Shown piece after piece: positions 7,580-33,310 of a DNA stretch of 64,000 nt (position 1 is its first letter; every line of letters begins with the position of its first letter). This DNA is from Ignavibacteria bacterium (GTDB lineage Bacteria > Elusimicrobiota > Endomicrobiia > PHAN01): assembly GCA_041694835.1 (NCBI GenBank), contig JBGFRZ010000082.1:62658-126657 (forward strand), read 5' to 3'. The position numbers and the translations under genes were made by a program. Below the pieces are notes generated by a model. That model was given only the letters and a program-made list of their open reading frames with translations. It did not search any database and had not been told where the DNA came from.

Positions 7580-8425
7580 CTAAACATTGTCTATCAGCCT
7601 TGTCCTGCCAACCTTGGCGGCTATCAGGATTCTTAAATTATTTTTCAGCGATATTCTCCCCTCAATATTCGTTAACGTTTTCGGATCGACAATTTCTACA
7701 TATTCAAGATTTATCCCGGAGATTTTTGAAACCGCTTTAGTTATATATTTTTTTACCGATACAATGTCTTTAAGATACCCCTCTGAAATTTTGACTTTCG
7801 CGTCCGATATCGCTTTATAAATTAATGCCGAATCTAATTTTTGACCCGTCGAAAGATATTTATTTCTGCTTGAAAACGCCAGTCCGAATTTTTCTCTTAT
7901 AGTCGGACACGAAATGATTTTCACGGGGATATTTAAATCATCTACCATTTTTTCTATGATTTTCAGTTGTTGAAAATCCTTCGTGCCGAAATACGCTCTT
8001 GTCGGTTGGATAATGTTAAACAGTTTTAAGACGACGGTTGTAACTCCGCGAAAATGTCCCGGGCGGAATTTTCCGCAAAGTATGTCTGAAAGATTTTTCA
8101 CTTCAACAAAAGTCAGATGCTCTTGTTTATAGATATCGTTTGTGGAAGGATAGAAAATTATGTCGACGCCAGTTTGTCGACAAATTTTTTTGTCTTGGCG
8201 AAATGTGCGTGGATATTTTTCAAAATCCTCGTTTTTGCCGAACTGCGCGGGATTTATAAATATCGAAACGACAACGAGAGCATTTTCTTTGCGAGCCCTT
8301 TTTATCAAAGAGAGATGTCCTTCGTGGAGCGCCCCCATCGTAGGGACAAAGCCGATTGTTTTGCCACACTTTTTAAGCTTTACAAAATATCTTTGGGCAA
8401 CAACGGGTGAAGTGATTATCTTCAT
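7580..8425 (-). CDS. panC: Pantoate--beta-alanine ligase
   Basis: GFVPTMGALHEGH, RPGHFRGV, GLAFSSRN, TRLIDN; start placed at MKIITSP because the ORF-track extension is heptamer-repeat DNA. Confidence 0.95.
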   Translation of the reverse strand: MKIITSPVVAQRYFVKLKKCGKTIGFVPTMGALHEGHLSLIKRARKENALVVVSIFINPAQFGKNEDFEKYPRTFRQDKKICRQTGVDIIFYPSTNDIYKQEHLTFVEVKNLSDILCGKFRPGHFRGVTTVVLKLFNIIQPTRAYFGTKDFQQLKIIEKMVDDLNIPVKIISCPTIREKFGLAFSSRNKYLSTGQKLDSALIYKAISDAKVKISEGYLKDIVSVKKYITKAVSKISGINLEYVEIVDPKTLTNIEGRISLKNNLRILIAAKVGRTRLIDNV

Positions 8426-8539
8426 TTTGAAACCGCTGAAAAACCTGTCAATAGTCCACAGTCCGCAGATTCTGTCGACCATCGACTATCGACTAAATTC
8501 TTTTGGGTGTCAGAAGGCCTTTTTCAATACCCTCATTTT

Positions 8540-8626
8540 ACAAATGTTCGATGCTTCAGACGATAAAAATCGACAATATTTAACAATGCTCCGACGATAA
8601 ATTCGAACAAATGTTCGAATTTTCAG
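8540..8626. repeat. Degenerate ~33-bp tandem repeat containing palindrome TTCGAACAAATGTTCGAA
   Basis: Units ACAAATGTTCG..CAGACGATAAA; the same palindrome and context recur at 49361-49412. Confidence 0.6.
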
Positions 8627-9499
8627 TCAGAGATTTTTGCTAAAAAATCTCGTTATTGTTTTCTTATACTCATCCGTATGCTCTATATAAGCTGTGCCAT
8701 GGCCGTGCGAATCGAAAACGACCAGTTCCTTGGGTTCCTCCGCTTTTTCATAAACCCTTTTTACCGCTTCAACCGGAATGTTTTCATCGCCAGAAGTAGC
8801 CAACAAAAGAACCGCTGTCGGCGAAACTTTCGATATATTTCGCATCGGAGAGTATCTCTCGGGCGAATGACCCAGGCGGATTATCGCACCCAGAATCGTA
8901 AGAACAACAAGTGGGTGCCGCGGGAGATTAAGAAAAAGTTTCGCATGGTGGGCTGTAATTTCGTTGAAAGAATCAAAAGGGCTTTCGGCCACAACTGCGT
9001 TTATTCTTTTGTCTTTGGAAGCAGCGTATATTGCAGCGACACCACCCATAGAAAATCCGAAAACGCCTATCTTCGCCGACAGAGAAGGTTTTTCCTCTTT
9101 GAGATATTTCACGGCTGAGAGCATGTCCTCAGATTCATATTTTCCCATGGAGGTTTTATTTCCGCCACTTTCTCCGTGATTCGTAAAATCGAAATATAGA
9201 AGATTGTAATGCTGATGGAGAAAAAATGTCGAATATAAAACATCGCCTTTAGAAGCGCCCCATCCGTGACAAATTATTATAGTTTTGGAAGTATTTTTCT
9301 GCGAAGTTATAAACCAACCTGATATTTTTCGTCTGCCGGATTTAAACTCTATTTTTTCAAAAGGAATTTTTAAGTTGTCCGGCGTTACATAATCTCTTAT
9401 GCGAGGTGCATTTAAAATTAAACGAGACGAAAACCATGCCCAAATTAAACAAGTGGTTAGAAAAATAAGTGCCCAAAAAACCGCAGGGTTGAGTTTCAA
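8627..9499 (-). CDS. Membrane-anchored alpha/beta hydrolase
   Basis: N-terminal TM, HGW, HGESGG, nucleophile elbow GFSMG, catalytic D/H region. Confidence 0.85.
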   Translation of the reverse strand: MKLNPAVFWALIFLTTCLIWAWFSSRLILNAPRIRDYVTPDNLKIPFEKIEFKSGRRKISGWFITSQKNTSKTIIICHGWGASKGDVLYSTFFLHQHYNLLYFDFTNHGESGGNKTSMGKYESEDMLSAVKYLKEEKPSLSAKIGVFGFSMGGVAAIYAASKDKRINAVVAESPFDSFNEITAHHAKLFLNLPRHPLVVLTILGAIIRLGHSPERYSPMRNISKVSPTAVLLLATSGDENIPVEAVKRVYEKAEEPKELVVFDSHGHGTAYIEHTDEYKKTITRFFSKNL

Positions 9500-9500
9500 T

Positions 9501-10901
9501 CTATATCTTCCCCCATGGTTTTCTTTTTACAAATCGCCCGTGTCCGACGGTGCCGGTAAATTTTCCGTCTTTCGCTACGATTTTTCCGCGAGAGATTGTA
9601 ACGGCGGGGTAACCTTTTAATTTCATACCCTGGAAAGGCGACCAGTCGCATCTGGTCTGCATATTATTAAAATCAATAACAACCCGTTTATTTGGGTCAA
9701 AGACGCAGATATCGGCGTCGGAGCCGACTTTGATTGTTCCTTTCTGAGGGTATAGTCCGAAAATTTTGGCGGGGTTCGTTGAGACGACTTCCACGAATCT
9801 GTTGAGCGAGAGTTTTTTCTTGTTAACACCCGCGGTAAATATCGTCGGAACCATCGTCTCAAGCCCCGGTATACCGAATGGAATTTTTGTAAAATCCCCC
9901 TGCCACATCGCTTTTTGTTTTGTGTCAAATGTGCAGGTGTCGGTTCCTATGGTGTCAATGTATCCTTTTTTCAATCCTTCCCAAAGACCCAGCTGGTCGT
10001 GTTTCTTTTTTACCTGCGGACAAATGCCGTAAAGGTGTCCCGTTTCCCTGGATTTATAAACATCGTCGGTCAAAAGGAGATAAGTCGGACAGGTCTCCGC
10101 CCATATTTTTACGCCGTCTCTTTTCGCCTCGCGCACAATCTCGGCGCTTTCCGACGCCGACATATGGACGATAAAAAGCCGTCCGCCCGTTTCTTTTGCC
10201 CAAGTCGCCGCGCGGCGGACCGCCTCGTATTCTGTATAACAAGGACGAGCCATCGCGTGAAGATAGGCGCCGTATTTATTCATCATCTCCTGCGTGTGGT
10301 ATCTCTCAATAAGGAGGTCCAGGACAATCGCACTCTCGGCGTGGACAAGGATTAGTCCTCCGTGTTTTGCCGTTTCCTCAAGCCCTTGAAAAAGTATTCC
10401 GTCGTCAGCCATCCAGCCCTGAGAGCGATAAATCATAAACATCTTAAAAGAGGTCACACCGTCCTTTACGAGGTCGCTCATATCTCTTCTCACATTCTCG
10501 TTCCACTTGGTTATTCCGCCGTGAAGAGCGTAATCCACGCACACTTTTCCGTCGGCTTCTTTCTTCCTCGCCTCAACGGTTTCAATAAGAGAACCCCCTT
10601 TGTCCTGTATGGCTATGGCGAAATCAATAACGGTGGTCACGCCGCCGCATGCCGCGGCTTTCGTGCCATTTTCAAAATCGTCGCATGAAACCGTTCCGCA
10701 AAAAGGCAGCTGCAAATGCACATGGGCATCAATCGCGCCGGGAAAAACAAGCAATCCCCTGGCATCGAGCATATGGGCGCCATCTGCTCTGATGTCTTTT
10801 TTGACCGAGACGACTTTCTCTCCTTTGATGGCGATGTCGGCAACAAATGTCTTTTCGGCAAGAACGATTTTTCCGCCTTTAACGACTAAATCAAATGACA
10901 T
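9501..10901 (-). CDS. hydA: Dihydropyrimidinase (D-hydantoinase)
   Basis: PGAIDAHVH, GTKAAACGGVTTVIDF, SFKMFM, DFTKIPFGIPG; SD GGAGG before the ATG at 10901. Confidence 0.92.
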   Translation of the reverse strand: MSFDLVVKGGKIVLAEKTFVADIAIKGEKVVSVKKDIRADGAHMLDARGLLVFPGAIDAHVHLQLPFCGTVSCDDFENGTKAAACGGVTTVIDFAIAIQDKGGSLIETVEARKKEADGKVCVDYALHGGITKWNENVRRDMSDLVKDGVTSFKMFMIYRSQGWMADDGILFQGLEETAKHGGLILVHAESAIVLDLLIERYHTQEMMNKYGAYLHAMARPCYTEYEAVRRAATWAKETGGRLFIVHMSASESAEIVREAKRDGVKIWAETCPTYLLLTDDVYKSRETGHLYGICPQVKKKHDQLGLWEGLKKGYIDTIGTDTCTFDTKQKAMWQGDFTKIPFGIPGLETMVPTIFTAGVNKKKLSLNRFVEVVSTNPAKIFGLYPQKGTIKVGSDADICVFDPNKRVVIDFNNMQTRCDWSPFQGMKLKGYPAVTISRGKIVAKDGKFTGTVGHGRFVKRKPWGKI

Positions 10902-11206
10902 AAAACCTCCTCTTAATATAGGCAAAGAAAAATAGGAAATAGGGAACGATGGAAAGAACGGTGCCAGATGTCAGATGCAGGTTAAAACGACAGATACACG
11001 TTGTAGCGGCACCGCCTTGCAGTGCAAATAATTGGCATCGTAAAGCTTGTCCTCGCAGGGGAACGATGCATCTACCTGTATTCTGTATTTGCTTTTCCTT
11101 TATCCTGCATCCTGTATCTGTTTTTTGGTATCCGGGATCCGGTATCCGCTATCGCTTTTGTCTGTTCTACTGCTCCGACCTCTGACCTCTCATCTCTGAC
11201 CTCTGT

Positions 11207-11680
11207 TTATTCCAGCATATATTCTTCAAAAGGAATTCCTTTCTTAATCAATTCTTCGCGCCAGAGTTGTTTTGCCTTCGGCATTTTTTCGCGTGAGCGT
11301 CTCACCCATTTTGATTCGGGCGGCGAAAAGAGTTCCGCCGCCGTCTGATACCATACATATGCATATTTTATTGACGATTCTTCTCGTTCTCTTTTATTGT
11401 TAAACTCAATGATTTCTGTTTGTATTTCGTATTCTTTCTGTGAGATTTTTTTTGAATCCAACTTCTTTTGAAGTGATGTTTTTTCTTTGGAGAGTTTTTC
11501 GTCAAAAAACTTCTCTTTTAATTGAGGGTTTTCGTGCCATGCCCAAAACTTTTCGCCTTCAAGATACGCCGAGCGAGCACGCATTACAACATCAACATAA
11601 ATGAGCGCATAAACTGCAATTATGGTAGCAACGACCGAGGCGGCAATTCTTTGCCATTTTTTAGGAAATAATTTATTCAT
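11207..11680 (-). CDS. Hypothetical membrane-anchored protein
   Basis: 157-aa ORF with a single N-terminal TM helix, co-oriented with neighbours. Confidence 0.7.
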   Translation of the reverse strand: MNKLFPKKWQRIAASVVATIIAVYALIYVDVVMRARSAYLEGEKFWAWHENPQLKEKFFDEKLSKEKTSLQKKLDSKKISQKEYEIQTEIIEFNNKREREESSIKYAYVWYQTAAELFSPPESKWVRRSREKMPKAKQLWREELIKKGIPFEEYMLE

Positions 11681-12077
11681 CTTTGTTTTTTATCTTTTTA
11701 TGTCTTTAATGTCGTGCGTCCGATAAAAATGTTCTTTTAATCTCTATAATCGTTTTCAACCTGCTCTTCTTTTTCCACAAACTCTTTTATCTACCTGCGA
11801 TGATTCGGTTACTCCAAAAAATTTTCGTCTTGTTTTTCTCATTTGAGCGAGCACATTAAGAGAGGTTTAAAAATTTTTCTTCGTTGAGCGATTCTGCTTC
11901 TTCGTAACTTCCCTGTCTCCAATAGATTTTTCTTCCATCTGATATTTTTTTCTAATTTTCATAATAGTGTTCCGGACAATGTTTTCATTGGTTTATTTCG
12001 CACAGAGGATTTTTAATTGAGACCCGTCTCCAATTCCATCCAATTCCAAATTCTGACAATTTACCACTGCTTTTATT

Positions 12078-13082
12078 CTAAACAGATAGTAATTTTAATT
12101 GATGAATATGTTGATACCGATAATGATTACGTTTAATCAAAGAATGCTTTTTTTCAATGTCAACTTCTTTCAATCTTCGAATAGCAATTTTTACATATTC
12201 ACTATTAGAATCAATTCCAATGTATTTCTTTTCTAATATCTTGGCAGCGACTGTCGTGGTAGCGCTCCCAACAAAAGGGTCTAATATAATGGCATTTTTA
12301 GAAAAAGCCGATAACTGAATCAAATATTCACAGATCGCTAATGGTTTCACTGTTTTATGTAGATTATAATCTCCTTTTTCTTTCTTTGATGGTTTGGGCA
12401 ACAGGAACACTTTATCAATCTCAGTGTTTATGTTTTCAGTGGTAATTACATTTGCTGGATACATATTTTTACCCAATCTAATATTCGTATTTACCAAACC
12501 AACTTTGTATTTCAACATGTTGTTTAGATAAGTAGTGTCTGTCGGTTTTTGCGCCACAGCAATAGGTTCAAAACAAGATTTAATCTGCGGGGTCTTCCAT
12601 CCGTGCAATCTTTCTCTAATAATATTTTTTTGGTCATTGCCAGCTCCCATCTTATCAATAAAATGATTAAGCCCCATTGCCTTTGCCTGATTTTGAGTAT
12701 AGAGCCACATGAAAACATCTCTGATCTCAAATCCCGCATCGTCCAATGCTGATGCCATTCTATGATATAGGCGAGGACTAGAAAATGAAAAGAAAAATCC
12801 ACCGGGTTTCAATAATCTGATAATTTCCTTTGATATTTTTAAATACCAACTATAAAATCTGACGCCTTGTTCTCTCTCAAATTTCATTCCAGCTGGCAAT
12901 GACTTTATGATGTAGTGATTGCGTGTATTAGTTACTACTTCATGATTCCATTGGTTGTCCAGTTTATCTAAAAAATACGGGGGGTCAGTTATAACAAGAT
13001 CTATTGAATTGCTTTCAATTTGCGGAAGCACGTTTAATGCATTATCACATATAATTTTATTCAAAAATTTTTTGTTTTTCAT
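12078..13082 (-). CDS. Type II DNA methyltransferase (N6-A/N4-C, beta class)
   Basis: ITDPPY near the N-terminus, HKTVKP, LDPFVGSATT; AT-rich. Confidence 0.9.
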   Translation of the reverse strand: MKNKKFLNKIICDNALNVLPQIESNSIDLVITDPPYFLDKLDNQWNHEVVTNTRNHYIIKSLPAGMKFEREQGVRFYSWYLKISKEIIRLLKPGGFFFSFSSPRLYHRMASALDDAGFEIRDVFMWLYTQNQAKAMGLNHFIDKMGAGNDQKNIIRERLHGWKTPQIKSCFEPIAVAQKPTDTTYLNNMLKYKVGLVNTNIRLGKNMYPANVITTENINTEIDKVFLLPKPSKKEKGDYNLHKTVKPLAICEYLIQLSAFSKNAIILDPFVGSATTTVAAKILEKKYIGIDSNSEYVKIAIRRLKEVDIEKKHSLIKRNHYRYQHIHQLKLLSV

Positions 13083-13085
13083 ACT

Positions 13086-13810
13086 CTATTTTATTTCGGA
13101 AGGTTTTTTACCGTCAAACTTATCATATAGAATTTTGTAAATTTTTATTTTTATCTCTCTATCGCAAGTTCTTACCACATTTGAATCGGCAACTTTTATT
13201 ACTCTGCCTTTTTCGTCATAAACCCATCTATTCCTATCTCCACGATTACACTTTTGACATTGAGGAATAATATTATCCGCAACTAATGGTTTACGAGGAT
13301 TCATATGAGCTTTTTGTAATTTTGTTTTTGTGGCAGGCCAATGCAAATGAGGCAGTCCTTCTTCGGAACCACATGTGGCGCATCTAAAATGATATTTTTC
13401 TTTCATCTTACTCCAATCGTCCGTATCACTAATTCTATGTCCTTTTTTAAAAGATGGGTAGGGCTTTTCTAATGTGTATAATTGATACTCCCCCCTTTTA
13501 AGATTCAAGACGATATTATCTCTGCCCCCTGCCACAATCCACCAACCTTTTTGTGCTCCTAAATGCCTGGCCTGTTGCACATCATTGACATCAGGGTCAA
13601 ACTCTCGAATAAATCTCGTTAGTTCTTCTTTAGTAACTTTATTCGTATATGGATAGTTCTGAGCTAAATAAACTAAAACAAGCGCATCCTTTTAAAATTG
13701 CCAGAAGCATCATGAAGTCTAGGTAAACCAACCCCATATTTTTCCAAATGTTTTGCATGACACTCTTTAATAATAGTGTGATAAATTCTATATATTTCGT
13801 TCTTATCCAT
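13086..13810 (-). pseudogene. HNH-type restriction endonuclease, frameshifted near 13690-13697
   Basis: MDKNEIYR..HDASGNF frame stops (TAG); the -1 frame continues KDALVLVYLAQ.. into the 164-aa ORF with CATC..H..AH..N..CQKCN. Confidence 0.7.
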
Positions 13811-13813
13811 ATT

Positions 13814-15022
13814 TTATGTTTTCATTTCGAGTGTCACGCAGGATTCTACGGGGCAAATCACGGCGCAGAGGCCGCATCCGACGCATTTTTCTTCGTCGAC
13901 CGACGGCAAACGGTTGCTGTCAAGGGTAATCGCTTGATGTCCCCCGTCGGAACATCCAAGATAACAAAGGTCACATTTCTCGCAGGTTTCTTTGTCGATT
14001 TTGCTGACCGGCTTTTTTTCTCTTGAAAGAGCGACGTGCGAAGAGATTTTTTGTGCAGAAACGCCGACCATGTCGGATATTTTTGCAAAGCCCTTGTCGT
14101 CCATGAAGTTTGAAAGTCCGTCTTTGAGGTCCTCGACGATTCTATAGCCGTAATGCATTGCCGCTGTACAGACCTGAAGTCCCGACGCTCCCATAAGTAA
14201 AAACTCGGCAGCGTCCCGCCAAGTGGTTATTCCGCCCATTCCCGATATCGGAAGACCCAGACGTTCGTCGAGATAAAGTTCGGTAATGAATCTGAGCGCA
14301 ATCGGTTTTACGGCGGGACCTGACAATCCTCCGAGAGCGGATTTTCCGTTTACCGTTGGGAGCGGAATCAGTGTTTCAAGGTCAACACCAATTACCGCCT
14401 GAACGGTGTTTATCGCGGCTATGGCATCCGCTCCGCCGTTTTTTGCGGCAAGAGCGGGCTCTCTCATATCTGTGATATTAGGTGTGAGTTTTGCAAGAAC
14501 AGGCATTTTGCCCGCGGCTTTTTTTACCCATCCGCAGACCTTCTCGACGTTTGAAGGCGATTTCCCCGTCGCAGAGCCCATTCCTTTTTCAGGCATTCCG
14601 TGGGGACATCCGAAGTTTAATTCAAGTCCGTCGACGCCGCAGTCAAGCACTTTTTTCGTTATTTCCGTCCACGACTCTTCGTCGTTTGCAACCATTAGCG
14701 ACGCTACTACGACATTTTTTGGATATTTTTTTTTCGTCTCGCGGATTTCTTTTAAGTTTACTTCAAGGGTTCTGTCGGTTATCATCTCTATGTTTTCAAG
14801 CGCGATGAGTTTTTTGTCCTCGTAGTCAAGTCCGGCAAGGCGCGGGCTGACGTTGACAATCGGAGTTTTTTCTTCCAATCCGAGAGTTTTCCAGACGGCG
14901 CCGCCCCAGCCGGCGTCAAACGCCCTCTGAATCATCTCGCCGGTATTTGTCACCGGACTTGAAGCCAACCAGAACGGATTTTGGGATTTGATACCACAAA
15001 AATCAATCGAAATGTCCGCCAT
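13814..15022 (-). CDS. preA: Dihydropyrimidine dehydrogenase catalytic subunit PreA
   Basis: NPFWLASSP, GWGGAVWKT, ELNFGCPHGM, KLTPNITD, two C-terminal 4Fe-4S motifs. Confidence 0.93.
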   Translation of the reverse strand: MADISIDFCGIKSQNPFWLASSPVTNTGEMIQRAFDAGWGGAVWKTLGLEEKTPIVNVSPRLAGLDYEDKKLIALENIEMITDRTLEVNLKEIRETKKKYPKNVVVASLMVANDEESWTEITKKVLDCGVDGLELNFGCPHGMPEKGMGSATGKSPSNVEKVCGWVKKAAGKMPVLAKLTPNITDMREPALAAKNGGADAIAAINTVQAVIGVDLETLIPLPTVNGKSALGGLSGPAVKPIALRFITELYLDERLGLPISGMGGITTWRDAAEFLLMGASGLQVCTAAMHYGYRIVEDLKDGLSNFMDDKGFAKISDMVGVSAQKISSHVALSREKKPVSKIDKETCEKCDLCYLGCSDGGHQAITLDSNRLPSVDEEKCVGCGLCAVICPVESCVTLEMKT

Positions 15023-15123
15023 AAAACCTCCTGACTCCGCTATAGCGGGAAGTTAAAGGTCAAAGGATAAAGGGTAAAGGTCAAAATATTTAGATTTTAT
15101 ACCTTTAATTTTAACCTTTCACC

Positions 15124-16365: not shown

Positions 16366-16511
16366 ATTCTATACCCCGGCGACATAGCGACGCATCGACT
16401 CAGCGACATAATAGCAGAGCAACAGAGCAGTAGCGAGTAGCGGGTAGATAGTAGATAGGGGGAACAACCCTCGCTACTCGCTACCATCTACTATCTACTA
16501 TTCGCTATTTG

Positions 16512-18350
16512 CTATCTACCATCCAACTCCAGTTCTTTCAACTTTTCCTGCTTCGGTATTCCTTCTTCATCCCATCCGCGATGGACATAATACTCCATAA
16601 CCATTTTTGCGACATTCGGGACCACGCCTTTCGCTTTTCCTTCTTTTTTCGGATATACGGTAATTCTCGACGGTTCCAGGTCATCTTTTCTTGAAATGCC
16701 GAGGCGCGTGTTGTAGAGCCGTTTTAAATCGAACAATCGCTCGCCTGTTTTCATATAGTCGTCGAGTGTCCAGTCCCATCCACAAACGGCGTTGACCCAG
16801 TTTGAAATCTGCGACGGACCCACACGGGCGTGAAACAGAAATTTACAGAGTCCGAGCGGATTAAATAATGATATAAAATTTTGCATCTCAAAAACAATTT
16901 TCGGTTTGTCGGTTTCTTCAAACTGGTTCGGCGGGGCGGTGATTCCCAGATCTTTGCAAGGGACGCCCCTATCAAGAAAGTATGTGAGACCTTCAAGATG
17001 ACACGCACCTCTTGCGGCGGTCGCGTAGTTGATTGCCATAGAGACATGTCCTCTCGGGTCGTGGGCGGGAAAGTCAAGTCCTTTGTTGTGAGAAACATAC
17101 TCGATAGTATTTTTGCCGATGGCTTTTGCCGCATCTCTGACACCTTTTGCAAGGAGAACACCGATGTTTTTTTTGTAAGCGGTCATCTTAATTATTTCAA
17201 CGAGAGTCTTCGCGTCGCCCCATTTGAACTCAACGTCTCCAGTGTCTGCTCTTGTGATTTTTCCTTTCTCGTAACACTCAATCGCAAACGCGGCGACAGA
17301 GCCCATGGAAATCGTATCCATACCGAGCTTATTTGTGAGTTCGTTTATATACGCCAATACATAGAGGTCGTTATTTAAAACATTTGAGCCGAGCATCGCG
17401 ACGGTCTCATACTCGGGATAGTGGCCACAGAAACTTCCGAAGTTCTTTAACTCGCCCTTGACGAGCTTGCCGCAGCCGATGGGACATGCCCAGCAAGCGT
17501 AGTGCTTGACCCAGATTTTTTCTCTCATCGCCTGTCCCGAAATTTTTACAATATCGGGATACGTTCCAATGGCGTAATTTTTTATCGGAAGGTCGCCGAA
17601 CGACTCAACTGCAGGAGAGCCGCCGGCAGTACCAAATTCTCCGAGGGCTTTTGCATTTTCTTTTATCGCGGGTATTTCTTCTTTAAGCAGTGCTCTTAAT
17701 TTTTCGGGGTCTGCGACGGCGACTCTTTTCCCCTGACCTTTTACGACGATAGCTTTAAGGTTTTTTGAGCCCATGTTGGCACCGATGCCCGAGCGCGCCG
17801 CAAAACGGGAATTGGGCGGGTCAAAACAAATTGCGGCTATACTGACAAGATTTTCTCCAGCAGGGCCTATCGCGGCGACGAGATGCTTCTCATGTCTCTT
17901 TGAGAGAATTTCACCGGTTTCGTAGGTATCCTTTCCCCACAAATCACTGGCATCCTGTATCCTGCATCCTGCATCTATTATTAGATAAACCGGCTTATTG
18001 GATTTTCCCGTTATTAAAATTCCGTCATATCCGAGCATCCTGAATTCCGTCGGCCAATGGCCGCCCACGGTCGCTTCGTTCCAAATGCCCGTAAGCGGCG
18101 ATTTTGCGCAGACGGACATTTTGCAGGCAGTCGGCACGACTGTCCCGGTTAAAAGCCCCGACAAAAACAAAATTGGATTTTCTTCTGAAAGTGGCGCGAG
18201 GTTAACAGGGGCTTCGTTGTAAAGAATCTTTGCGGCAAGACCCGAGCCGAGCGTATATTTTTTGACATCCGTCTCATTGATTGGTTTCTCGCCGATTTTT
18301 CCCGACGACAAATCAACGGTTAAAATTTTCCCATGAAATCCGTTCGGCAT
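16512..18350 (-). CDS. Aldehyde:ferredoxin oxidoreductase (W/Mo, AOR family)
   Basis: KSPLTG, IGPAGE, MGSKNLKAIVV, CWACPIGC, EYET, GMDTIS, RGACH. Confidence 0.92.
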   Translation of the reverse strand: MPNGFHGKILTVDLSSGKIGEKPINETDVKKYTLGSGLAAKILYNEAPVNLAPLSEENPILFLSGLLTGTVVPTACKMSVCAKSPLTGIWNEATVGGHWPTEFRMLGYDGILITGKSNKPVYLIIDAGCRIQDASDLWGKDTYETGEILSKRHEKHLVAAIGPAGENLVSIAAICFDPPNSRFAARSGIGANMGSKNLKAIVVKGQGKRVAVADPEKLRALLKEEIPAIKENAKALGEFGTAGGSPAVESFGDLPIKNYAIGTYPDIVKISGQAMREKIWVKHYACWACPIGCGKLVKGELKNFGSFCGHYPEYETVAMLGSNVLNNDLYVLAYINELTNKLGMDTISMGSVAAFAIECYEKGKITRADTGDVEFKWGDAKTLVEIIKMTAYKKNIGVLLAKGVRDAAKAIGKNTIEYVSHNKGLDFPAHDPRGHVSMAINYATAARGACHLEGLTYFLDRGVPCKDLGITAPPNQFEETDKPKIVFEMQNFISLFNPLGLCKFLFHARVGPSQISNWVNAVCGWDWTLDDYMKTGERLFDLKRLYNTRLGISRKDDLEPSRITVYPKKEGKAKGVVPNVAKMVMEYYVHRGWDEEGIPKQEKLKELELDGR

Positions 18351-18371
18351 ACTTCCTCCGAAGTCATTAAC

Positions 18372-18563
18372 TTATGTACCAGTTTTAATAAAGTCAATAG
18401 CACAATCATCACATAAAGGCGCCCATGCCTGTTCAGTATAAAAAGCATCGTATTGGTTATTGTCTTTTTTCTTTGCTTCATCTTCGTCAATATAACCGAA
18501 TCTTACTTCAACCGCCATTGTCTCGTTATCAAATATTTCTTCACATTTTTCACATTTCCACAT
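18372..18563 (-). CDS. Small zinc-finger-like protein (63 aa)
   Basis: CEKC...CDDC, acidic, plausible SD; lies inside the R-M insertion. Confidence 0.55.
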   Translation of the reverse strand: MWKCEKCEEIFDNETMAVEVRFGYIDEDEAKKKDNNQYDAFYTEQAWAPLCDDCAIDFIKTGT

Positions 18564-18635
18564 AAATTCTCTTAAATCGAAACAGAAACCTTCGTGCCGA
18601 AATTAAATCGAAAGCATATTTGTAATAAGGAGCAA

Positions 18636-19424
18636 CTATTTCAAAAAATCACAGATAGACCCAACTAAACCAGAAAAATTGCCAATACCGTCAAGATGGT
18701 CGTAATTATTCAAAACAAACAATCCCCCTCCAAGTTTAATATCATCAATAATCAGTTGCACTTCTGTCTGTTTTACTGTTTTTCTGGTTTTTCCACTTTC
18801 ATTATATTTATCAAAATCCCTATATCTTGCCCAATCAAGAGTAATAAAACCATATTTGATTTGTAAATTTTCTTTTGTAAAAATGACCGTATATTTATCT
18901 TTACCATATTTTGCATTTAATACATCTTGATCCATCAAAAATAAATGAGATAAAAATTGTCCGATTCTTTCTCTTGTTGTACCTTTTGCCGATAATATAA
19001 AAGCCTTTTTTATTTTTTCAAAATTATCTTTAACAACTACAATATCACTATCAAATTTCTTGATGTGACTTGTATTTTTTCTCACAAGACACAGAGAATT
19101 GGTAACATAAGAAATAATATCGTTATAAGTTTTGTGGTTTGTTGCCAAATAATTTAATTTATTTTCCTTGAAGTAAGCATTGAGTAAATATACTATACTT
19201 TCTTCTACCAATTTTCCAAGAACCGAATCTTTGCTTGATTTTTCTTGCCTTGCTTCGTCCTCTGTTTTCTTCTTATCAAATTGCGAAGCATATTTTTTAG
19301 CATATTTATTTGCATCTGAAAAAATGAAGTATTTATTCAAGTTTACCCCAACATTTAAACTACCTTTGTCTTTTATCACTTTGCCTAATTTTCCTTCTAA
19401 ATAACTTTTGTGAACTAAATCCAT
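18636..19424 (-). CDS. Putative type II restriction endonuclease (PD-(D/E)xK, BsaWI/Cfr10I-like)
   Basis: GKLVEE..FDSDIVV..LSAKGTTRER; directly downstream of an MTase; AT-rich. Confidence 0.65.
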   Translation of the reverse strand: MDLVHKSYLEGKLGKVIKDKGSLNVGVNLNKYFIFSDANKYAKKYASQFDKKKTEDEARQEKSSKDSVLGKLVEESIVYLLNAYFKENKLNYLATNHKTYNDIISYVTNSLCLVRKNTSHIKKFDSDIVVVKDNFEKIKKAFILSAKGTTRERIGQFLSHLFLMDQDVLNAKYGKDKYTVIFTKENLQIKYGFITLDWARYRDFDKYNESGKTRKTVKQTEVQLIIDDIKLGGGLFVLNNYDHLDGIGNFSGLVGSICDFLK

Positions 19425-19441
19425 AATAAACCCTCTTTCCT

Positions 19442-20314
19442 TTATAAAAGTTTAGGTTGTCTTGCAACAATCTTTATATTTTTTTCTGCTATTTCACAAT
19501 ATTCTCGGCAATTATCTATATAAATATATTTTCTTTCAGTTTTTACACTAACAACTGGAACTGTTCCAGTTCCCCCAAAAGGGTCTAAAACTATATTATC
19601 AATGTATGAATAAAATTTAACTAAACGATATATAAGTTTTTCTGGAAAGGGTGCCGGATGTCCTTTTGGTTGAGTTTGAGGTTTTATGTCCCAAAATGAA
19701 TTTGAAAATTCTATAAATTCCTCTTTTGTAATATCTATCTTTTTAGGTTCTCCCTCTAATTTTTTTTCTTCTTTACTAAACACTAATACGAATTCATACG
19801 GTTGAACAACATAAGGATTTGATGGAGATTTCCAAGAACCCCAAGCAGTTCTTTTCGAAATTGCTTGTTTATACCACAATATATCACCTCTCATAATATA
19901 GCCAATTTTTCTCATTTGATTAACGACATCTACAAAAAGTGGTTGATATTGTCCGTCAGCCGTCACACTTGGTACATTTATGCAAATTCTACCTCCTTTA
20001 ATTAAAACACGATAGCATTCAAACCAAACTTTTTCAAGCCAATCTAGATATTCCTTGTAAGGCATATTATCATAATGGTTCTTGTATGGTTTTCCTACAT
20101 TATATGGTGGGGATGTAATTATAAGATGAATAAAATTTTCCGGCATTAATTTCATAACTTCTACACAATCACCACAAATAACTTGATTTATAAACCTATT
20201 TTCCGATTGAACAAGAATTTCTTTTTGAGTAATTGTGTGATATGGTATTACCGTTTCTTCCAACAAATTATTCTTTGTTACTTTCTTTTTTTTATATTCC
20301 ATTGATTTATCCAA
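19442..20314 (-). CDS. Type II DNA methyltransferase (SPPY, probably N4-mC, beta class)
   Basis: ITSPPYN, TAWGSW, HPAPFP, LDPFGGTGT; alternative ATG at 20302. Confidence 0.9.
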   Translation of the reverse strand: MDKSMEYKKKKVTKNNLLEETVIPYHTITQKEILVQSENRFINQVICGDCVEVMKLMPENFIHLIITSPPYNVGKPYKNHYDNMPYKEYLDWLEKVWFECYRVLIKGGRICINVPSVTADGQYQPLFVDVVNQMRKIGYIMRGDILWYKQAISKRTAWGSWKSPSNPYVVQPYEFVLVFSKEEKKLEGEPKKIDITKEEFIEFSNSFWDIKPQTQPKGHPAPFPEKLIYRLVKFYSYIDNIVLDPFGGTGTVPVVSVKTERKYIYIDNCREYCEIAEKNIKIVARQPKLL

Positions 20315-20430
20315 AATCGATAAGTACTGTTCATCGGTTACTACTTATACTTACCATATTCTTTTAGTATTTCTTTTGCGGGAAACAATTTATAAAAGTT
20401 TGCTGCGACTTAAAGAATGTCGTTCACATC

Positions 20431-21567
20431 CTAAATGTTTGACATTATCTCATCGGTGTGTTCGCCAAGAAGAGGGGCGGGCTTAAAATGTTTGTCGTCG
20501 CATCCGTCTATTTTTATCGGGGTGCCGGCGACTTTGATTTTTCCTATTTTTTTCTGATTCAATTCTACTATCATGTTCCTGTGGATTATCTGCGGATGTT
20601 TACAAACGCGGGATATGTCGTTCACAGGCCCGCAGGGAACGCCATGTCTGTTGAGGTTGTTTAAAAGTTCCTTTATCGTGTGCGCTTTTGTATATCTCTC
20701 GATTATCGATTTCAGTTTTTTCTCGTTTTTCAAACGCTTTTCATTGTTTTCGAAGTGTTTGTTGTGTATCAAATCTTCGCGGCTTATCGCCAGGCAAAAC
20801 TCCATCCAGAGATCCTCGTTTCCGCAGGCTATCGCCAAAAATCCGTCTTTTGCCTTAAATATGTCGAACGGGCAGAGAGACGGATGAAGCGAGCCTATGC
20901 GCTCGGGAGTTTTATTAGTAGCGTTATATCTTACTATGGCATTTTCAAGAACCGCTACGATGGAATCGACCATTGATATGTCAATACGGCAGCCCAATCC
21001 TGTTTTTTCTCTTCCGTAAAGGGCTGTAGTTATGCCGTAAGCCGCAAACATGCCGGCAAGTACATCTGCCATTGAAGTTCCGACTCTCGTCGGAGGCGTG
21101 TCGGGATAACCTGTGATGCTCATTATTCCGCCGACAGCTTGGGCGATAACGTCGTATCCGGCGTATTGCGAAAGCGGCCCCGTCTGGCCGTATCCGGTTA
21201 TCGAAGCATAAATGAGTTTTGGATATTTTTTTTTGAGCGAGTCATAATCAAGACCTAATTTTTTCATTGTTCCCGGACGAAAGTTTTCAAGAAGAATGTC
21301 AGTATTTTTAAGCAATCGCTTAATAATTTTTATTGACTCTTTATTTTTTAAATCCAAAACAACGCTTTTTTTTCCGCGGTTTACGCTTATAAAATATCCG
21401 CTCTGTCCGTCGATAAACGGTCCGAAGAGTCTTGAATCGTCGCCGGTCTTCGCTCTTTCAATCTTTATGACCTCGGCCCCCATGTCGGCAAGCATCATAG
21501 AGCAATATGGGCCGGAAAGCACCCTTGTAAAATCAATGACTTTCACGCCTTTAAGCGGTTTTTTCAT
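20431..21567 (-). CDS. Family III CoA-transferase (CaiB/BaiF)
   Basis: LSGPYCSMMLADMGAEVIKIE, NRGKKS, ENFRPG, SMADVLAG, APLLGEHT. Confidence 0.92.
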   Translation of the reverse strand: MKKPLKGVKVIDFTRVLSGPYCSMMLADMGAEVIKIERAKTGDDSRLFGPFIDGQSGYFISVNRGKKSVVLDLKNKESIKIIKRLLKNTDILLENFRPGTMKKLGLDYDSLKKKYPKLIYASITGYGQTGPLSQYAGYDVIAQAVGGIMSITGYPDTPPTRVGTSMADVLAGMFAAYGITTALYGREKTGLGCRIDISMVDSIVAVLENAIVRYNATNKTPERIGSLHPSLCPFDIFKAKDGFLAIACGNEDLWMEFCLAISREDLIHNKHFENNEKRLKNEKKLKSIIERYTKAHTIKELLNNLNRHGVPCGPVNDISRVCKHPQIIHRNMIVELNQKKIGKIKVAGTPIKIDGCDDKHFKPAPLLGEHTDEIMSNI

Positions 21568-21648
21568 ATATCAACTCTTCGTCCAATGTAACCTGGGGCA
21601 CTGCACTATTTTTCTATCCCCTATTTTCTATCCCCTATTTTCTATCCT

Positions 21649-21945
21649 CTATTCTTTGACCTTAACAAGTATATCATTTTTTCCAACTTTATTGCCAACT
21701 TTCACGAAAATCTTCTCTATTTTCCCTTTAACTTCTGAAATTATCTCGTTTTCCATTTTCATCGCTTCCAGAATTATAATCGTTTCTCCCGACGATACGG
21801 CATCCGTTTCTTTTTTTTTGACTTCAATTATAACGCCGGGGATAGGCGAAGCGATAAGATAAGGATTATTGGCCTTTTCTGCACGGATTTTTTTGTCCGG
21901 AAATTCGGTAATATACTCTCCGTCTTCAAGAATCAGTTTGTCCAT
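21649..21945 (-). CDS. Biotin carboxyl carrier protein
   Basis: SPIPG..LEAMKMENEI; start MDKLILEDG (upstream ORF extension is heptamer repeat). Confidence 0.88.
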   Translation of the reverse strand: MDKLILEDGEYITEFPDKKIRAEKANNPYLIASPIPGVIIEVKKKETDAVSSGETIIILEAMKMENEIISEVKGKIEKIFVKVGNKVGKNDILVKVKE

Positions 21946-22057
21946 AATCAGAGACAAGAGAACAGAGGTGAGAGGACAGAGGTCAGGGAAAAACCTCTCA
22001 CCTCTCATCTCTCTCCTCTATTCGCTATTCGCTGTCCACTATTCTCTATTCCCCAAT

Positions 22058-23593
22058 TTACAGCGGAATGTTGCCGTGTTTTCTGTCGGGTTTTTTTGAA
22101 CGTTTGTTTTTCATAACGGAAAGCGCTGAAACAATTTTAAGACGCGTTTCTTCGGGCAGAATAACATCGTCGATATAGCCGAACGACGCCGCAATGTAAG
22201 GCGAAGCGAATTTTTCGGTGTATTCTTTCATCTTGTCCTGTCTTGTTTTTTCGGGTTGGGACGAGGACTCTATCTCTTTCTTGAAAATTATGTTTGCCGC
22301 GCCAAGCGGACCCATAACAGCTATCTCGGCCGAAGGCCATGCGAACACAAAGTCGGCCCCGAGATGGCGGCTGCACATCGCTATGTATCCACCACCGTAG
22401 GCCTTCCTCAATATCACGGTAAGTTTCGGAACGGTCGCCTCAGAATATGCATAAAGCATCTTCGCTCCGTGCCTGATGACGCCCGAATGCTCCTGCTCAA
22501 TGCCGGGGAGATATCCCGGGATATCGGCGAAAGTTACGATAGGTATGTTAAATGAATCGCAAAATCTTATGAATCTTGCAGCCTTGTTGGAAGAATCTAC
22601 GTCAAGAACGCCGGCGAGAAACTTGGGCTGATTGGCGATTATACCGACGGATTCCCCGTCGAGATGTGCAAAACCTACGACTATATTTTTCGCGTGCATC
22701 GCCTGGACTTCAAAAAAATCTCCGTCATCGAAAACGGCTTTTATGACGTCCCTGACATCATACGGTTTTTTGGGGTCGGAGGGAACAATCGAATTTAAGT
22801 CGGCAGAAGGTGGGGGGCGCCGCTCGGCGAGGGGTGGTTTTTGTGCGTTATTATCTGGCAAGTAAGAAAGCAAAGTTTTAATCTGTTCAATACACTCCTT
22901 TTCACTTTCGGCATAAAAATGCGCATTGCCGGTTATTTCGTTATGAACCCTTGCGCCGCCGAGATCTTCCATACTTATTTCCTCTCCAAGAACGGTCTTT
23001 ATAACCTCCGGGCCGGTGATAAACATCTTCGATATTTTGTCAACCGTAAAAACAAAGTCAGTCAGAGCGGGGGAGTAAACCGCTCCTCCGGCACAAGGCC
23101 CGAGTATGACCGAAATCTGCGGGATTACCCCGGAAGAAAGGGTGTTTCTGTAAAATATTTCTCCGTAACCGGCGAGAGCGTTGATGCCTTCCTGTATCCT
23201 CGCTCCACCTGAGTCGTTTATGCCTACTAGCGGGATACCTGAACTTAACGCGAAATCCATTATTTTAGTAATCTTCCTGGCGTGCATCTCTCCCAGAGAA
23301 CCTCCGGCGGACGTGAAGTCTTGAGAAAATACAGCGAGACACCTCTCGTTAACTTTTCCATGACCAACAATTACGCCATCGGCCGGAATTTCTTTTTTGT
23401 CAAGTCCGAAATTGGATGAGCGGTGTTTAACGAAAGGGTCTATCTCGACGAAGCTTCCCTTGTCAAACAGCAAATCAAGCCTTTCCCTTGCTGTAAGCTT
23501 GCCGGAGTCGTGCTGTTTTTTAACAGCGACGCTGCCGCCGAGAGAAATTAGATTCCCGCGACTTTTGCCGAGTTCTTCGTTTTTATCCGTCAT
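22058..23593 (-). CDS. Acyl-CoA carboxyltransferase (PccB / methylmalonyl-CoA decarboxylase alpha family)
   Basis: GKLTARER, DSGGARIQEG, GPCAGGAVYSPA, RKAYGG, KHGNIPL. Confidence 0.93.
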   Translation of the reverse strand: MTDKNEELGKSRGNLISLGGSVAVKKQHDSGKLTARERLDLLFDKGSFVEIDPFVKHRSSNFGLDKKEIPADGVIVGHGKVNERCLAVFSQDFTSAGGSLGEMHARKITKIMDFALSSGIPLVGINDSGGARIQEGINALAGYGEIFYRNTLSSGVIPQISVILGPCAGGAVYSPALTDFVFTVDKISKMFITGPEVIKTVLGEEISMEDLGGARVHNEITGNAHFYAESEKECIEQIKTLLSYLPDNNAQKPPLAERRPPPSADLNSIVPSDPKKPYDVRDVIKAVFDDGDFFEVQAMHAKNIVVGFAHLDGESVGIIANQPKFLAGVLDVDSSNKAARFIRFCDSFNIPIVTFADIPGYLPGIEQEHSGVIRHGAKMLYAYSEATVPKLTVILRKAYGGGYIAMCSRHLGADFVFAWPSAEIAVMGPLGAANIIFKKEIESSSQPEKTRQDKMKEYTEKFASPYIAASFGYIDDVILPEETRLKIVSALSVMKNKRSKKPDRKHGNIPL

Positions 23594-32496: not shown

Positions 32497-32526
32497 AATT
32501 TTTCTCCTGTGAAATCCTTCGGATTT

Positions 32527-33039
32527 CTATTTCAGTTTGTCGTATATCCCGTAAATTTTCGTAAGTTTAAGCACCTTCACTATTTTCAACTTTTCCACTT
32601 TCGTTTTCAGATTGGTGCGGTAGTAAATTATGAATTTTTTGGCGAGCAGATATACAGGAACAAAAAGTATAATCGAAATCAAAATGCTACCGAGAACAAC
32701 GGTGTTGTTGAATCTAGTGAAAGGAACAATGGGCAGGTTGTAAAGATAACTCCAAAAAGGAGCAAGTAAGCGGGCATCCACAAGCAGAGCGTAGCCGAAG
32801 ATATCGGCCAGCGGATCCGCAAAATAGGCCACGAGCTTGAACAAAAGCGCCGAAAATAAAGCTGCTCCTATGTTCACCTTAAGCAAGAATATCAACAGAA
32901 ATACGAAGATGCCGAGAACTAAGCTTAAAGGCACAAGACCAAGTATTACACCGAAAGCCACTCCGGCGGCGATCTCGGACGGAGAAATTTCACTGTGTAA
33001 CAACCTTATGATTTTCTGAATTATCTTTAGCCAAAACAT
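32527..33039 (-). CDS. TIGR03546-family (DUF2062) membrane protein
   Basis: SEISPSEIAAG, NLPIVPFTRFNNTVVLGS. Confidence 0.8.
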   Translation of the reverse strand: MFWLKIIQKIIRLLHSEISPSEIAAGVAFGVILGLVPLSLVLGIFVFLLIFLLKVNIGAALFSALLFKLVAYFADPLADIFGYALLVDARLLAPFWSYLYNLPIVPFTRFNNTVVLGSILISIILFVPVYLLAKKFIIYYRTNLKTKVEKLKIVKVLKLTKIYGIYDKLK

Positions 33040-33177
33040 CGATTCCCTCCCATGAAATCCTTCGGATTTCTACATGAGTGTGTATCAGTGCCGACTTAGG
33101 CATTCGCTTCCTGCAAACATTATAGTAATTATTTTTGGTTTTTCAAAAGGTGCTACACTCAAATGTACTGCGGGGGT

Positions 33178-33266: not shown

Positions 33267-33291
33267 CTAAAAAATTCGTATTTGATAGAAT
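33263..33291 (+). promoter_or_regulatory. Sigma70 promoter of the tRNA-Leu-rpmH operon
   Basis: TTGACT-17 bp-TAGAAT, about 20 bp upstream of the tRNA. Confidence 0.7.
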
Positions 33292-33310
33292 AACTCGCAT
33301 ATAATTTGAC

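Follow-up and report, generated by a model that had tools for sequence, protein, structure and literature searches.

We analysed a 64,000-nucleotide stretch of contig JBGFRZ010000082.1 (positions 62,658 to 126,657, forward strand; hereafter the window) from assembly GCA_041694835.1, deposited as Ignavibacteria bacterium and placed by GTDB in the Endomicrobiia of the Elusimicrobiota. At 7580-23593, where every long open reading frame (ORF) is on the minus strand, the window carries genes of reductive pyrimidine (pyd) degradation together with an aldehyde:ferredoxin oxidoreductase (AOR), a CoA-transferase and an acyl-CoA carboxyltransferase. We consider it likely that this cluster encodes reductive pyrimidine degradation with a previously undescribed anaerobic end, in which the AOR would oxidise the semialdehyde derived from thymine or uracil to a free diacid that is then loaded onto CoA. 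The host genome (G000 in our numbering, with the window on contig C84) comprises 1.9 Mb in 89 contigs and is 97% complete.

The observation that carries this reading is the company kept by the AOR. Its relatives were sought in one genome per species (80 loci), in metagenome contigs (80 loci), in 41 related genomes, and in 401 Elusimicrobiota and 401 Spirochaetota genomes; flanking DNA was compared with the cluster proteins by tblastn, a match being defined by E ≤1e-15 and coverage of at least half of the query. Twelve AOR loci with at least 52% identity were found, in Elusimicrobiota, Spirochaetota and one metagenome contig (Table 1). In ten of the 12, PreA, the dihydropyrimidinase HydA or a beta-ureidopropionase-type hydrolase was encoded within the fetched flanks; the other two lie on short contigs, where the AOR adjoins the CoA-transferase (G002) or the aminotransferase (G757). 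Among 155 more distant AOR loci, none matched PreA or the nitrilase-type hydrolase, and three (L079, L091, L143) had a HydA-like gene (37-39%). The linkage spans at least six Elusimicrobiota families, two Spirochaetota genomes and the metagenome contig. In a maximum-likelihood tree built from 53 AORs, all 12 fall into a single clade (SH-aLRT 99), and a FastTree run with six clade members gave a support of 100. The nearest rows outside the clade are L029, a Clostridia metagenome-assembled genome with aminotransferase, AOR and NCS1 permease, and L112, where the AOR is followed by a family III CoA-transferase. Scanning metagenomes with generic patterns from the AOR alignment added one new clade member, L120, among 80 loci, and the 401 Spirochaetota genomes held no further member beyond the query's own genome. 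Across the 41 related genomes the AOR, PreA (at least 62% identity), the CoA-transferase (at least 46%) and the aminotransferase (at least 67%) occur in exactly the same four (G000, G001, G002 and G009); the weaker PreA matches in other relatives (29-37%) are mostly PyrD-sized proteins of ~300 amino acids (aa). A first-pass annotation of the window had made its proposal depend on the AOR, CoA-transferase and carboxyltransferase being linked to pyd genes in other genomes. This held for the AOR and the CoA-transferase; it did not hold for the carboxyltransferase and its biotin carboxyl carrier protein (BCCP), which are linked to pyd genes only within family f1 (the window and G001).

Table 1. 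The 12 loci of the AOR clade and the genes found at each
Locus	Lineage	Gene content
Window	Elusimicrobiota, family f1	Carboxyltransferase, BCCP, CoA-transferase, AOR, M20 carbamoylase, PreA, dihydropyrimidinase, PanC
G001	Elusimicrobiota, f1	Window order without the restriction-modification pairs
G002 / L026	Elusimicrobiota, f1	4.8-kb contig: CoA-transferase and AOR only
G009 / L027	Elusimicrobiota, f5	HydA, PreA, putative carbonic anhydrase, NCS1 permease, HycI, nitrilase-type hydrolase, AOR
G450	Elusimicrobiota, f19	Flavoprotein, AOR, glutamate dehydrogenase, hydrolase, NCS1 permease
G711	Elusimicrobiota, f24	Hydrolase, HydA, aminotransferase, AOR, MoaD-like ORF, CoA-transferase A+B, MeaB, mutase, B12 subunit, PreT, PreA
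G724	Elusimicrobiota, f24	Hydrolase, HydA, aminotransferase, AOR, MoaD-like ORF; PreT-PreA; MeaB, mutase, B12 subunit
G757	Elusimicrobiota, f24	Contig end: aminotransferase, AOR, MoaD-like ORF
G756	Elusimicrobiota, f27	PreT, PreA, AOR, CoA-transferase A+B, MeaB
L047	Spirochaetota	One strand: PreA, PreT, epimerase, MeaB, B12 subunit, mutase, CoA-transferase; other strand: AOR, hydrolase, aminotransferase
L028	Spirochaetota	CoA-transferase, AOR, hydrolase
L120	Metagenome contig	PreA, aminotransferase, hydrolase, AOR

Families were assigned by Pfam and NCBIfam profile searches, with the NCBIfam scores set against their curated cut-offs (Table 2). The co-oriented genes listed in the first-pass annotation (carboxyltransferase, BCCP, CoA-transferase III, AOR, ureidopropionase-like hydrolase, preA, hydA and panC) are all present on the minus strand, and by their family scores the PreA, ring-opening and carbamoyl-release steps are well grounded. 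PreA, a dihydropyrimidine dehydrogenase subunit, joins the FMN domain to a C-terminal 4Fe-4S dicluster (Fer4_21) and lacks the N-terminal Fer4_20 domain; it is 84-85% identical to its counterparts in G001 and G002 and 62% identical to that of G009. The PDB matches of the dihydropyrimidinase are D-hydantoinases and dihydropyrimidinases, and by tblastn it is the only enzyme of the D-hydantoinase type in the genome. The M20 amidase, whose PDB matches include the N-carbamoyl-beta-alanine amidohydrolase 8C46 and yeast beta-alanine synthase, is predicted to be an N-carbamoyl-beta-amino acid amidohydrolase in the role of PydC. Its slot in G001 is occupied by a nitrilase-superfamily hydrolase; among solved structures this protein comes nearest to Drosophila beta-alanine synthase (2VHH), with N-carbamoylputrescine amidase and human beta-ureidopropionase next in line. 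Because two unrelated folds share this position, the function kept there would be N-carbamoyl-beta-amino acid cleavage; across the clusters the slot is mostly filled by a nitrilase of the beta-ureidopropionase type. The nitrilase-type hydrolase of G009 (L027/L024) is 79-81% identical to those of L047 and L028, with AORs only ~55-62% identical to that of the window, which suggests that parts of the cluster may have been transferred between Elusimicrobiota and Spirochaetota.

Table 2. Features of the window, in order of position
Coordinates	Strand	Feature	Profile scores and remarks
7580..8482	-	PanC, pantoate-beta-alanine ligase	TIGR00018 324.8 (cut-off 212.75)
8627..9499	-	Alpha/beta-fold hydrolase, kept in cluster	PF00561 and related families
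9501..10925	-	Dihydropyrimidinase / D-hydantoinase (PydB role)	TIGR02033 472 (cut-off 393.25)
11207..11680	-	157-aa ORF, membrane-anchored: single N-terminal hydrophobic helix, zero cysteines	Conserved in cluster
12078..13082	-	DNA methylase (restriction-modification pair 2)	PF01555 114.4 bits
13086..13580	-	164-aa Cys-rich ORF (restriction-modification pair 2)	
13814..15022	-	PreA	NF006183 601.6 bits, full length (cut-off 335); PF01180 and PF14697
15124..16365	-	M20 carbamoylase-family amidase	TIGR01879 382.2 (cut-off 204); NF006771 542.4 (cut-off 399)
16512..18350	-	AOR (aldehyde:ferredoxin oxidoreductase)	AFOR_N 234.5 and AFOR_C 413.8 bits
18636..19424	-	BsaWI-like endonuclease (restriction-modification pair 1)	PF18643 28.6 bits
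19442..20314	-	N6/N4 DNA methylase (restriction-modification pair 1)	PF01555 150.1 bits
20431..21567	-	Family III CoA-transferase	PF02515 439.3 bits over residues 5-371
21649..22008	-	Small BCCP, 119 aa as listed	PF00364 58.9 bits; EAMKME biotinylation motif
22058..23593	-	Acyl-CoA carboxyltransferase, MmdA / PccB / 12S kind, 511 aa	PF01039 653.6 bits
23597..24856	-	Response regulator with 280-aa output part	PF00072 53.4 bits
24802..25644	-	Class I fumarate hydratase alpha subunit	PF05681 302.7 bits
59569..61005	-	AGXT2-like class III aminotransferase	PF00202 307 bits; among unrelated genes

The AOR itself belongs to the AOR proper: both AFOR_N and AFOR_C are present at full length, and it is nearer to AOR than to FOR, GAPOR, WOR5 or BamB, its nearest structure being P. 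furiosus AOR (1AOR, 390 bits, as against 278 for FOR, 226 for WOR5 and 168 for BamB). Residues C286, C289, C293 and C502, which we take by analogy with 1AOR to be the 4Fe-4S ligands, are invariant across six orthologues, and the other invariant columns are kept as well. As to the supply of the pterin cofactor, MoaC is present in the genome, and a MoaD-like ORF ending in GG adjoins the AOR in three genomes (G711, G724 and G757).

Further genes were seen in the related clusters. An NCS1 permease occurs in those of G009, G450 and L029, and in G450 a glutamate dehydrogenase lies between the AOR and the hydrolase. A fumarate-reductase-like flavoprotein stands beside the AOR in G009 (L024 6960-15753) and in G450 (C4, 12391-14016 of the joined stretch), the two copies being 79% identical. 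The G009 copy precedes genes for Fe-S, HdrA-like and CCG-domain proteins and for subunits of a NiFe hydrogenase, and a fumarase gene lies further on; the region may encode a reductase system, linked to hydrogen or ferredoxin, that is connected with the cluster. Three large ORFs of the clusters have no Pfam match (L047 14523-16301, 592 aa; G756:C29:3037-4686, 549 aa; G711:C295:26479-27636, equal to L220 2479-3636, 385 aa); they could be transporters or other parts of the pathway. A different pairing of the two families was seen at G020:C26:6353-19399 and in G018:C4, where several AOR paralogues (36-39%) lie beside a 401-aa PreA-like protein (29%).

The aminotransferase is predicted to act on beta-alanine and 3-aminoisobutyrate. 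The first-pass annotation had pointed to it as AGXT2/PydD-like and had placed its upper boundary at 60906; the profile search agrees with the family, and 60906 is probably the true start, because orthologues align only from residue 31-38 of the listed ORF on. An orthologue lies inside the pyd cluster of L047 (63-64%), and others stand directly beside the AOR in G711, G724 and G757 (46-54%); in L120 and L029 the AOR is adjoined by a member of a different class III subfamily, of the PRK06062 type. PanC is found at the same position in G001 and is absent from the clusters outside family f1. Since PanC sits in the cluster and neither PanD nor PanB was found in the host genome, the pattern suggests that part of the beta-alanine would be drawn off for pantothenate, a use that fits what had been proposed for PanC at first.

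For the family III CoA-transferase, the nearest structures are YfdE (4HL6, 361 bits) and SUGCT (323 bits), and its scores fall below the cut-off of every named equivalog (YfdE, SUGCT-like, mesaconate, Frc and CaiB groups; 398.3 against 522 for YfdE and 364.4 against 750 for the succinate-glutarate model). We predict it to be a (methyl)malonate CoA-transferase. Its orthologues adjoin the AOR in G001, G002, L028 and L047, and adjoin mutase and epimerase in G009 and L047. Altogether a CoA-transferase follows the AOR in seven loci, in two of which it is of another family: G711 and G756 have a two-subunit family I enzyme directly after the AOR (PF01144; 219.5 and 145.6 bits in G711). A methylmalonyl-CoA enzyme is invariably encoded close to the CoA-transferase, be it the carboxyltransferase (window, G001), mutase and epimerase (L047, G009) or mutase (G711, G724). 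Because mutase and epimerase replace the carboxyltransferase outside family f1, the conserved intermediate would be methylmalonyl-CoA, of the thymine branch, and not malonyl-CoA alone. Given the stereospecificities of the mutase, epimerase and carboxyltransferase families, and because an epimerase accompanies the mutase but not the carboxyltransferase, we infer that the CoA-transferase yields the (S) epimer.

The nearest structures of the carboxyltransferase are 1VRG (758.6 bits), PccB and the 12S subunit 1ON3 (614.6 bits). A 12S-type carboxyltransferase accompanied by a small free biotin carrier (≤119 aa, AMKM), as in a transcarboxylase, is what the cluster holds; translation of the carrier possibly starts at Met22. 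In the host genome no methylmalonyl-CoA mutase (PF01642) was found, nor any epimerase homologue by tblastn with the epimerase of L047, so methylmalonyl-CoA would not come from succinyl-CoA there, and free methylmalonate loaded by the CoA-transferase is its simplest source.

In the pathway that we propose, PreA would reduce thymine or uracil, the dihydropyrimidinase would open the reduced ring, and the M20 carbamoylase would release CO2 and NH3 to leave 3-aminoisobutyrate or beta-alanine, some of the latter being diverted by PanC to pantothenate. The AGXT2-like aminotransferase would then give methylmalonate or malonate semialdehyde, which the dedicated AOR would oxidise to free (methyl)malonate with the production of reduced ferredoxin, and the CoA-transferase would convert the free acid to (methyl)malonyl-CoA. 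In family f1 the MmdA-like carboxyltransferase and BCCP would drain (methyl)malonyl-CoA to propionyl- or acetyl-CoA, reusable as the CoA donor of the next round. In other lineages a B12-dependent mutase and an epimerase would lead to succinyl-CoA and on to succinate, with succinyl-CoA as the CoA donor. Three non-orthologous replacements follow the same logic: M20 or nitrilase carbamoylase, AGXT2-like or PRK06062-type aminotransferase, and family III or family I CoA-transferase. The pathway points to thymine at least as much as to uracil.

The electron supply of PreA differs between clusters. As the first-pass annotation had noted for the window, preT is missing: no PreT-type domain (PF14691) was matched on contig C84, and PreT is absent beside PreA also in G001 and G009. 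In these PreT-less clusters PreA would probably receive its electrons from ferredoxin that the AOR has reduced, so that the final oxidation of the pathway pays for its initial reduction; in such a closed loop the two electrons delivered by the AOR match the two that PreA needs. A Cys-motif scan found no ferredoxin gene inside the cluster, its only matches being PreA and an unrelated NIL-ferredoxin (52708-53115). In the genome search for preT that had been suggested at first, three Fer4_20 proteins were found to be encoded elsewhere, on C37 (paired with an NfnA-like protein), on C65 (in a fusion resembling YgfK and dihydropyrimidine dehydrogenase (DPD)) and on C39 (alone). We did not adopt the supply of PreT in trans, as none of the three is linked to the cluster; the stand-alone protein of C39 is a possible candidate for it. 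G756 (C29:8255-10585) appears to encode PreT-like and PreA-like parts in a single open frame of 776 aa, which might be a natural PreT-PreA fusion or result from a missed stop.

Several points weigh against the proposed pathway. Its steps beyond family assignment are predicted from gene context. Its clade was collected by similarity to the window AOR and many members are kin, so 12 loci do not amount to 12 independent events. The aminotransferase lies 41 kb from the cluster in its own genome, and its nearest structure (6TOR, 314.5 bits) is human ethanolamine-phosphate phospho-lyase, a phospho-lyase and not a transaminase; this human protein is a paralogue of mammalian AGXT2, the 3-aminoisobutyrate-pyruvate transaminase. 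Four related clusters (L047, G711, G724 and G756) do carry PreT; the electron loop from AOR to PreA is therefore no general feature, and AOR-reduced ferredoxin as the reductant of PreA, proposed in the first-pass annotation, could apply only to the PreT-less clusters. On the mmdA model TIGR01117 the carboxyltransferase scores 833.4, below the cut-off of 998.8. The Na+-pumping decarboxylase beta subunit for which a search had been recommended (PF03977, OAD_beta) is absent from all four Elusimicrobiota carriers (G000, G001, G002 and G009), and a Na+-pumping decarboxylase was accordingly rejected; the same search found matches in two Spirochaetota and two control genomes. A carrier-free partner of the 5S type was not found in the genome either, where the single PYC_OADA protein, encoded on another contig (C8), belongs to the PycB/OadA type, includes a biotin domain of its own and reaches 562.8 with the 5S model (cut-off 827). 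The carboxyltransferase may therefore run in either direction. The genome has two biotin carboxylases, a PycA-like one of them on C4, and our best guess for the carboxyl group on biotin is transfer to pyruvate via the PycB-type protein. Malonyl-CoA is not usable by the mutase, so the proposed pathway does not account for uracil carbon in mutase-type clusters; thymine may be the main substrate there. Lastly, the genome holds parts of a reductive uric acid pathway elsewhere, which the window dihydropyrimidinase may also serve.

That pathway could be taken to explain the cluster itself, with PreA corresponding to UacX, the dihydropyrimidinase to HyuA and the M20 protein to YgeY. The genome encodes SsnA (499.7 bits in the genome scan, 500.1 for the ORF; cut-off 455.5) on a contig other than that of the window, an 858-aa YgfK/DPD-like fusion and two proteins of the xanthine dehydrogenase (XDH) family, and its only D-hydantoinase-type enzyme is that of the window; in G001 an XDH operon follows PanC, and SsnA is reported in Elusimicrobiota and Spirochaetota in the accessible part of a preprint (10.1101/2025.05.19.654654). 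Yet no SsnA homologue was found in 14 loci covering 232 kb (the 11 clade loci besides the window, the G009 contig stretch with the family III CoA-transferase, L029 and L112), among which XDH occurs in G001 only. PreA scores far over the PreA equivalog cut-off and has a true PreT partner in four clusters, the carbamoylase slot mostly holds the beta-ureidopropionase-type nitrilase, the M20 protein reaches only 23.9 bits on the YgeY model, and a pathway that ends in diaminopropionate and pyruvate offers no role to the aminotransferase, the AOR, the CoA-transferase or the mutase. We regard this explanation as very unlikely. The fusion (G000:C65:13391-15967, PreT/GltD-like and PreA-like parts) occurs in the four genomes that carry the pyd-AOR cluster; SsnA lies ~8 kb from it, an 8-oxoguanine deaminase is also on C65, and the XDH-family genes are on C22 and C76. 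All of these genes probably belong to the reductive uric acid pathway. An explanation that we hold to be unlikely, if less so, is that the pyd genes mainly supply beta-alanine to PanC and that the AOR, CoA-transferase and carboxyltransferase are unrelated neighbours engaged in general aldehyde detoxification and propionate metabolism. PanC does lie in the clusters of G000 and G001, and neither PanD nor PanB was found in the 97% complete host genome; outside family f1, however, the clusters lack PanC, and the AOR, aminotransferase and CoA-transferase are still linked to pyd genes. This explanation also leaves the conserved module unaccounted for, including the single phyletic pattern of AOR, PreA, CoA-transferase and aminotransferase, and it fits as a side branch of the pathway proposed here.

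The module might also run in reverse, from acetyl-CoA through malonyl-CoA and malonate to the semialdehyde (by the AOR, with ferredoxin) and on to beta-alanine for PanC. AOR-family enzymes are able to reduce acids, and the presence of PanC without a detected PanD, the lack of a decarboxylase beta subunit and the two biotin carboxylases that could complete a carboxylase would all agree with such a synthesis. But the reduction of an acid is strongly uphill, the pyd genes of the same operon already give beta-alanine, and outside family f1 there is no PanC but a mutase and an epimerase, so that the reversed route would yield 3-aminoisobutyrate, which has no known use; we give this even less credence than the uric acid explanation. 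Least probable of all, in our judgement, is that a succinate-to-propionate fermentation of the Wood-Werkman type, unrelated to pyrimidines, left the carboxyltransferase, BCCP, CoA-transferase and fumarase behind as remnants. The 12S-like carboxyltransferase, the 1.3S-like carrier and the neighbouring fumarase recall that cycle, and mutase, epimerase and CoA-transferase do occur together in G009 and L047, but the cycle was rejected for the host genome, which lacks PF01642 and in which the epimerase search found no homologue; moreover, the position of the CoA-transferase after the AOR in seven loci, twice with an enzyme of the other family, is not what such remnants would explain.

The proposed pyrimidine pathway shares its beginning with known systems and parts from them at the semialdehyde. 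The canonical route runs through PydA or PreAT, PydB and PydC, with extensions by PydD and PydE to 3-hydroxypropionate and by a CoA-acylating malonic semialdehyde dehydrogenase (MSDH) to acetyl-CoA; in the accessible part of the source, PydD, PydE and MSDH are the only downstream enzymes named in the legend of Figure 1 (PMC7332683). Its first three steps and its aminotransferase are of the same enzyme kinds as ours, and the window PreA, dihydropyrimidinase and carbamoylase pass the curated cut-offs. Where the canonical route, as far as that part of the source describes it, reduces the semialdehyde (PydE) or couples its oxidation to CoA acylation while CO2 is lost (MSDH), the window AOR, a presumed tungsten enzyme, is predicted to give the free diacid, on which the CoA-transferase and then a methylmalonyl-CoA enzyme would act. 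Among the annotated ORFs of the clusters examined we noticed none of the PydE or MSDH type, for which no systematic search was made. The same part of the source describes PydAc of Clostridium chromiireducens as a ferredoxin-dependent dihydropyrimidine dehydrogenase that keeps both ferredoxin domains (PMC7332683). Like this enzyme, so described, the window reductase has no FAD/NAD(P)H part and belongs to a strict anaerobe in which ferredoxin is a plausible donor; unlike it, the window PreA lacks Fer4_20 and has the architecture of E. coli PreA minus its partner. The reductive uric acid pathway, in the accessible part of the preprint, comprises a PydA-like reductase, SsnA, a D-hydantoinase and an M20 hydrolase (10.1101/2025.05.19.654654). 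With that pathway (XdhD, YgfK/UacX, SsnA, HyuA, YgeW/UacY, YgeY, YgeX) the cluster has in common the PydA-like reductase, the D-hydantoinase and the M20 hydrolase; it lacks SsnA, YgeX-type and XdhD genes, whereas the uric acid pathway, as described there, lacks the aminotransferase, AOR and CoA steps.

The window AOR resembles P. furiosus AOR (1AOR) and bacterial AORs (8C0Z, 9G7J, 9MQX) in its two full-length Pfam domains and its conserved cluster cysteines. The AORs studied so far accept a broad range of aldehydes; the window enzyme differs in belonging to a separate, pyd-tied clade, in having no adjoining subunits of the AorA/AorC type and in its predicted substrate, a 3-oxo acid semialdehyde. 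Biotin-dependent methylmalonyl-CoA decarboxylase is known from Veillonella and Propionigenium, and transcarboxylase, with its 12S, 5S and 1.3S subunits, from Propionibacterium. The window carboxyltransferase is of the same family and is likewise accompanied by a small biotin carrier (~100-120 aa), but the membrane beta subunit is missing from the four genomes, no carrier-free 5S was found and the mmdA score is below the cut-off. The near relatives of the CoA-transferase, such as YfdE (acetyl-CoA:oxalate) and SUGCT (succinyl-CoA:glutarate), all act on dicarboxylic acids by their NCBIfam names; the gene context of the window enzyme points to methylmalonate or malonate, a specificity found in no paper searched. 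Full-text searches, with subscription journals outside their coverage, found no literature joining AOR with the catabolism of pyrimidines, beta-alanine or 3-aminoisobutyrate.

For most bacterial AORs the physiological substrate is unknown, and here a whole clade would obtain a specific predicted one. If the pathway is correct, the AOR route keeps the carboxyl group and yields reduced ferredoxin; thymine would be converted to succinate or propionate with full release of its nitrogen and no ATP spent on activation; family III and family I CoA-transferases would gain a new specificity; and small-genome anaerobes such as the Endomicrobiia would be seen to scavenge nucleobases for nitrogen and beta-alanine in this way. 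A more far-reaching version, which we put forward tentatively and do not hold to be probable as a whole, is that the clade consists of tungsten AORs dedicated to a branch of pyrimidine catabolism not described before, which strict anaerobes would use and which passes through free (methyl)malonate, a new (methyl)malonate CoA-transferase without ATP cost, and a drain either by a B12 mutase to succinyl-CoA or by biotin-type transcarboxylation or decarboxylation. In Endomicrobiia without PreT, the stand-alone PreA would then have the AOR as its sole source of low-potential electrons, so that the pathway's end drives its beginning, possibly through direct contact between these two iron-sulfur proteins.

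The cluster is interrupted by two restriction-modification (R-M) pairs, which are real insertions. Their GC contents (0.335 for pair 1 and 0.355 for pair 2, against 0.44-0.47 in the flanks) are the lowest-GC bins of the region, and both are missing from G001, a member of the same family but of another genus, in agreement with the first-pass annotation, which had set the R-M genes aside as inserts. Pair 1 lies in the gap between CoA-transferase and AOR and pair 2 in that between PreA and the 157-aa ORF; these gaps measure 548 and 124 nucleotides in G001 and ~2.1 kb each in the window. Family searches gave no family for the 164-aa ORF of pair 2, which is probably the endonuclease cognate to its methylase. 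The gene order of G001 (T2SSE, GAF-HD, fumarase alpha, response regulator, carboxyltransferase, BCCP, CoA-transferase, AOR, hydrolase, PreA, 157-aa ORF, dihydropyrimidinase, alpha/beta hydrolase, PanC) is identical to that of the window apart from inserts, G001 having its own unrelated 6-kb insert with Tad-pilus-like genes ahead of the dihydropyrimidinase. The cluster proteins from carboxyltransferase to PanC are 53-85% identical between the two (carboxyltransferase 74%, BCCP 53%, 157-aa ORF 71%, alpha/beta hydrolase 55%), and the upstream neighbours 33-80%.

Membership of the response regulator and the fumarase alpha subunit in the pathway is uncertain. Fumarase alpha is followed not by a beta subunit but by the response regulator with its 280-aa C-terminal part, and the same is seen in G001; in G009 a 183-aa ORF comes after the fumarase alpha gene, and fumarase lies ~10 kb from the AOR. 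The 157-aa ORF had no Pfam family match, and the spacer between it and the dihydropyrimidinase (10930-11208) contains purine-rich repeated words. A scan for promoters and terminators gave results close to the shuffle expectation, except for a strong hairpin downstream of PanC. Elsewhere in the window the coding strand switches from minus to plus near 32.5-33.5 kb, the cumulative GC skew has its minimum at ~34-36 kb and a DnaA gene lies at 39444-40844; the window probably includes the replication origin, at ~32000-41000.

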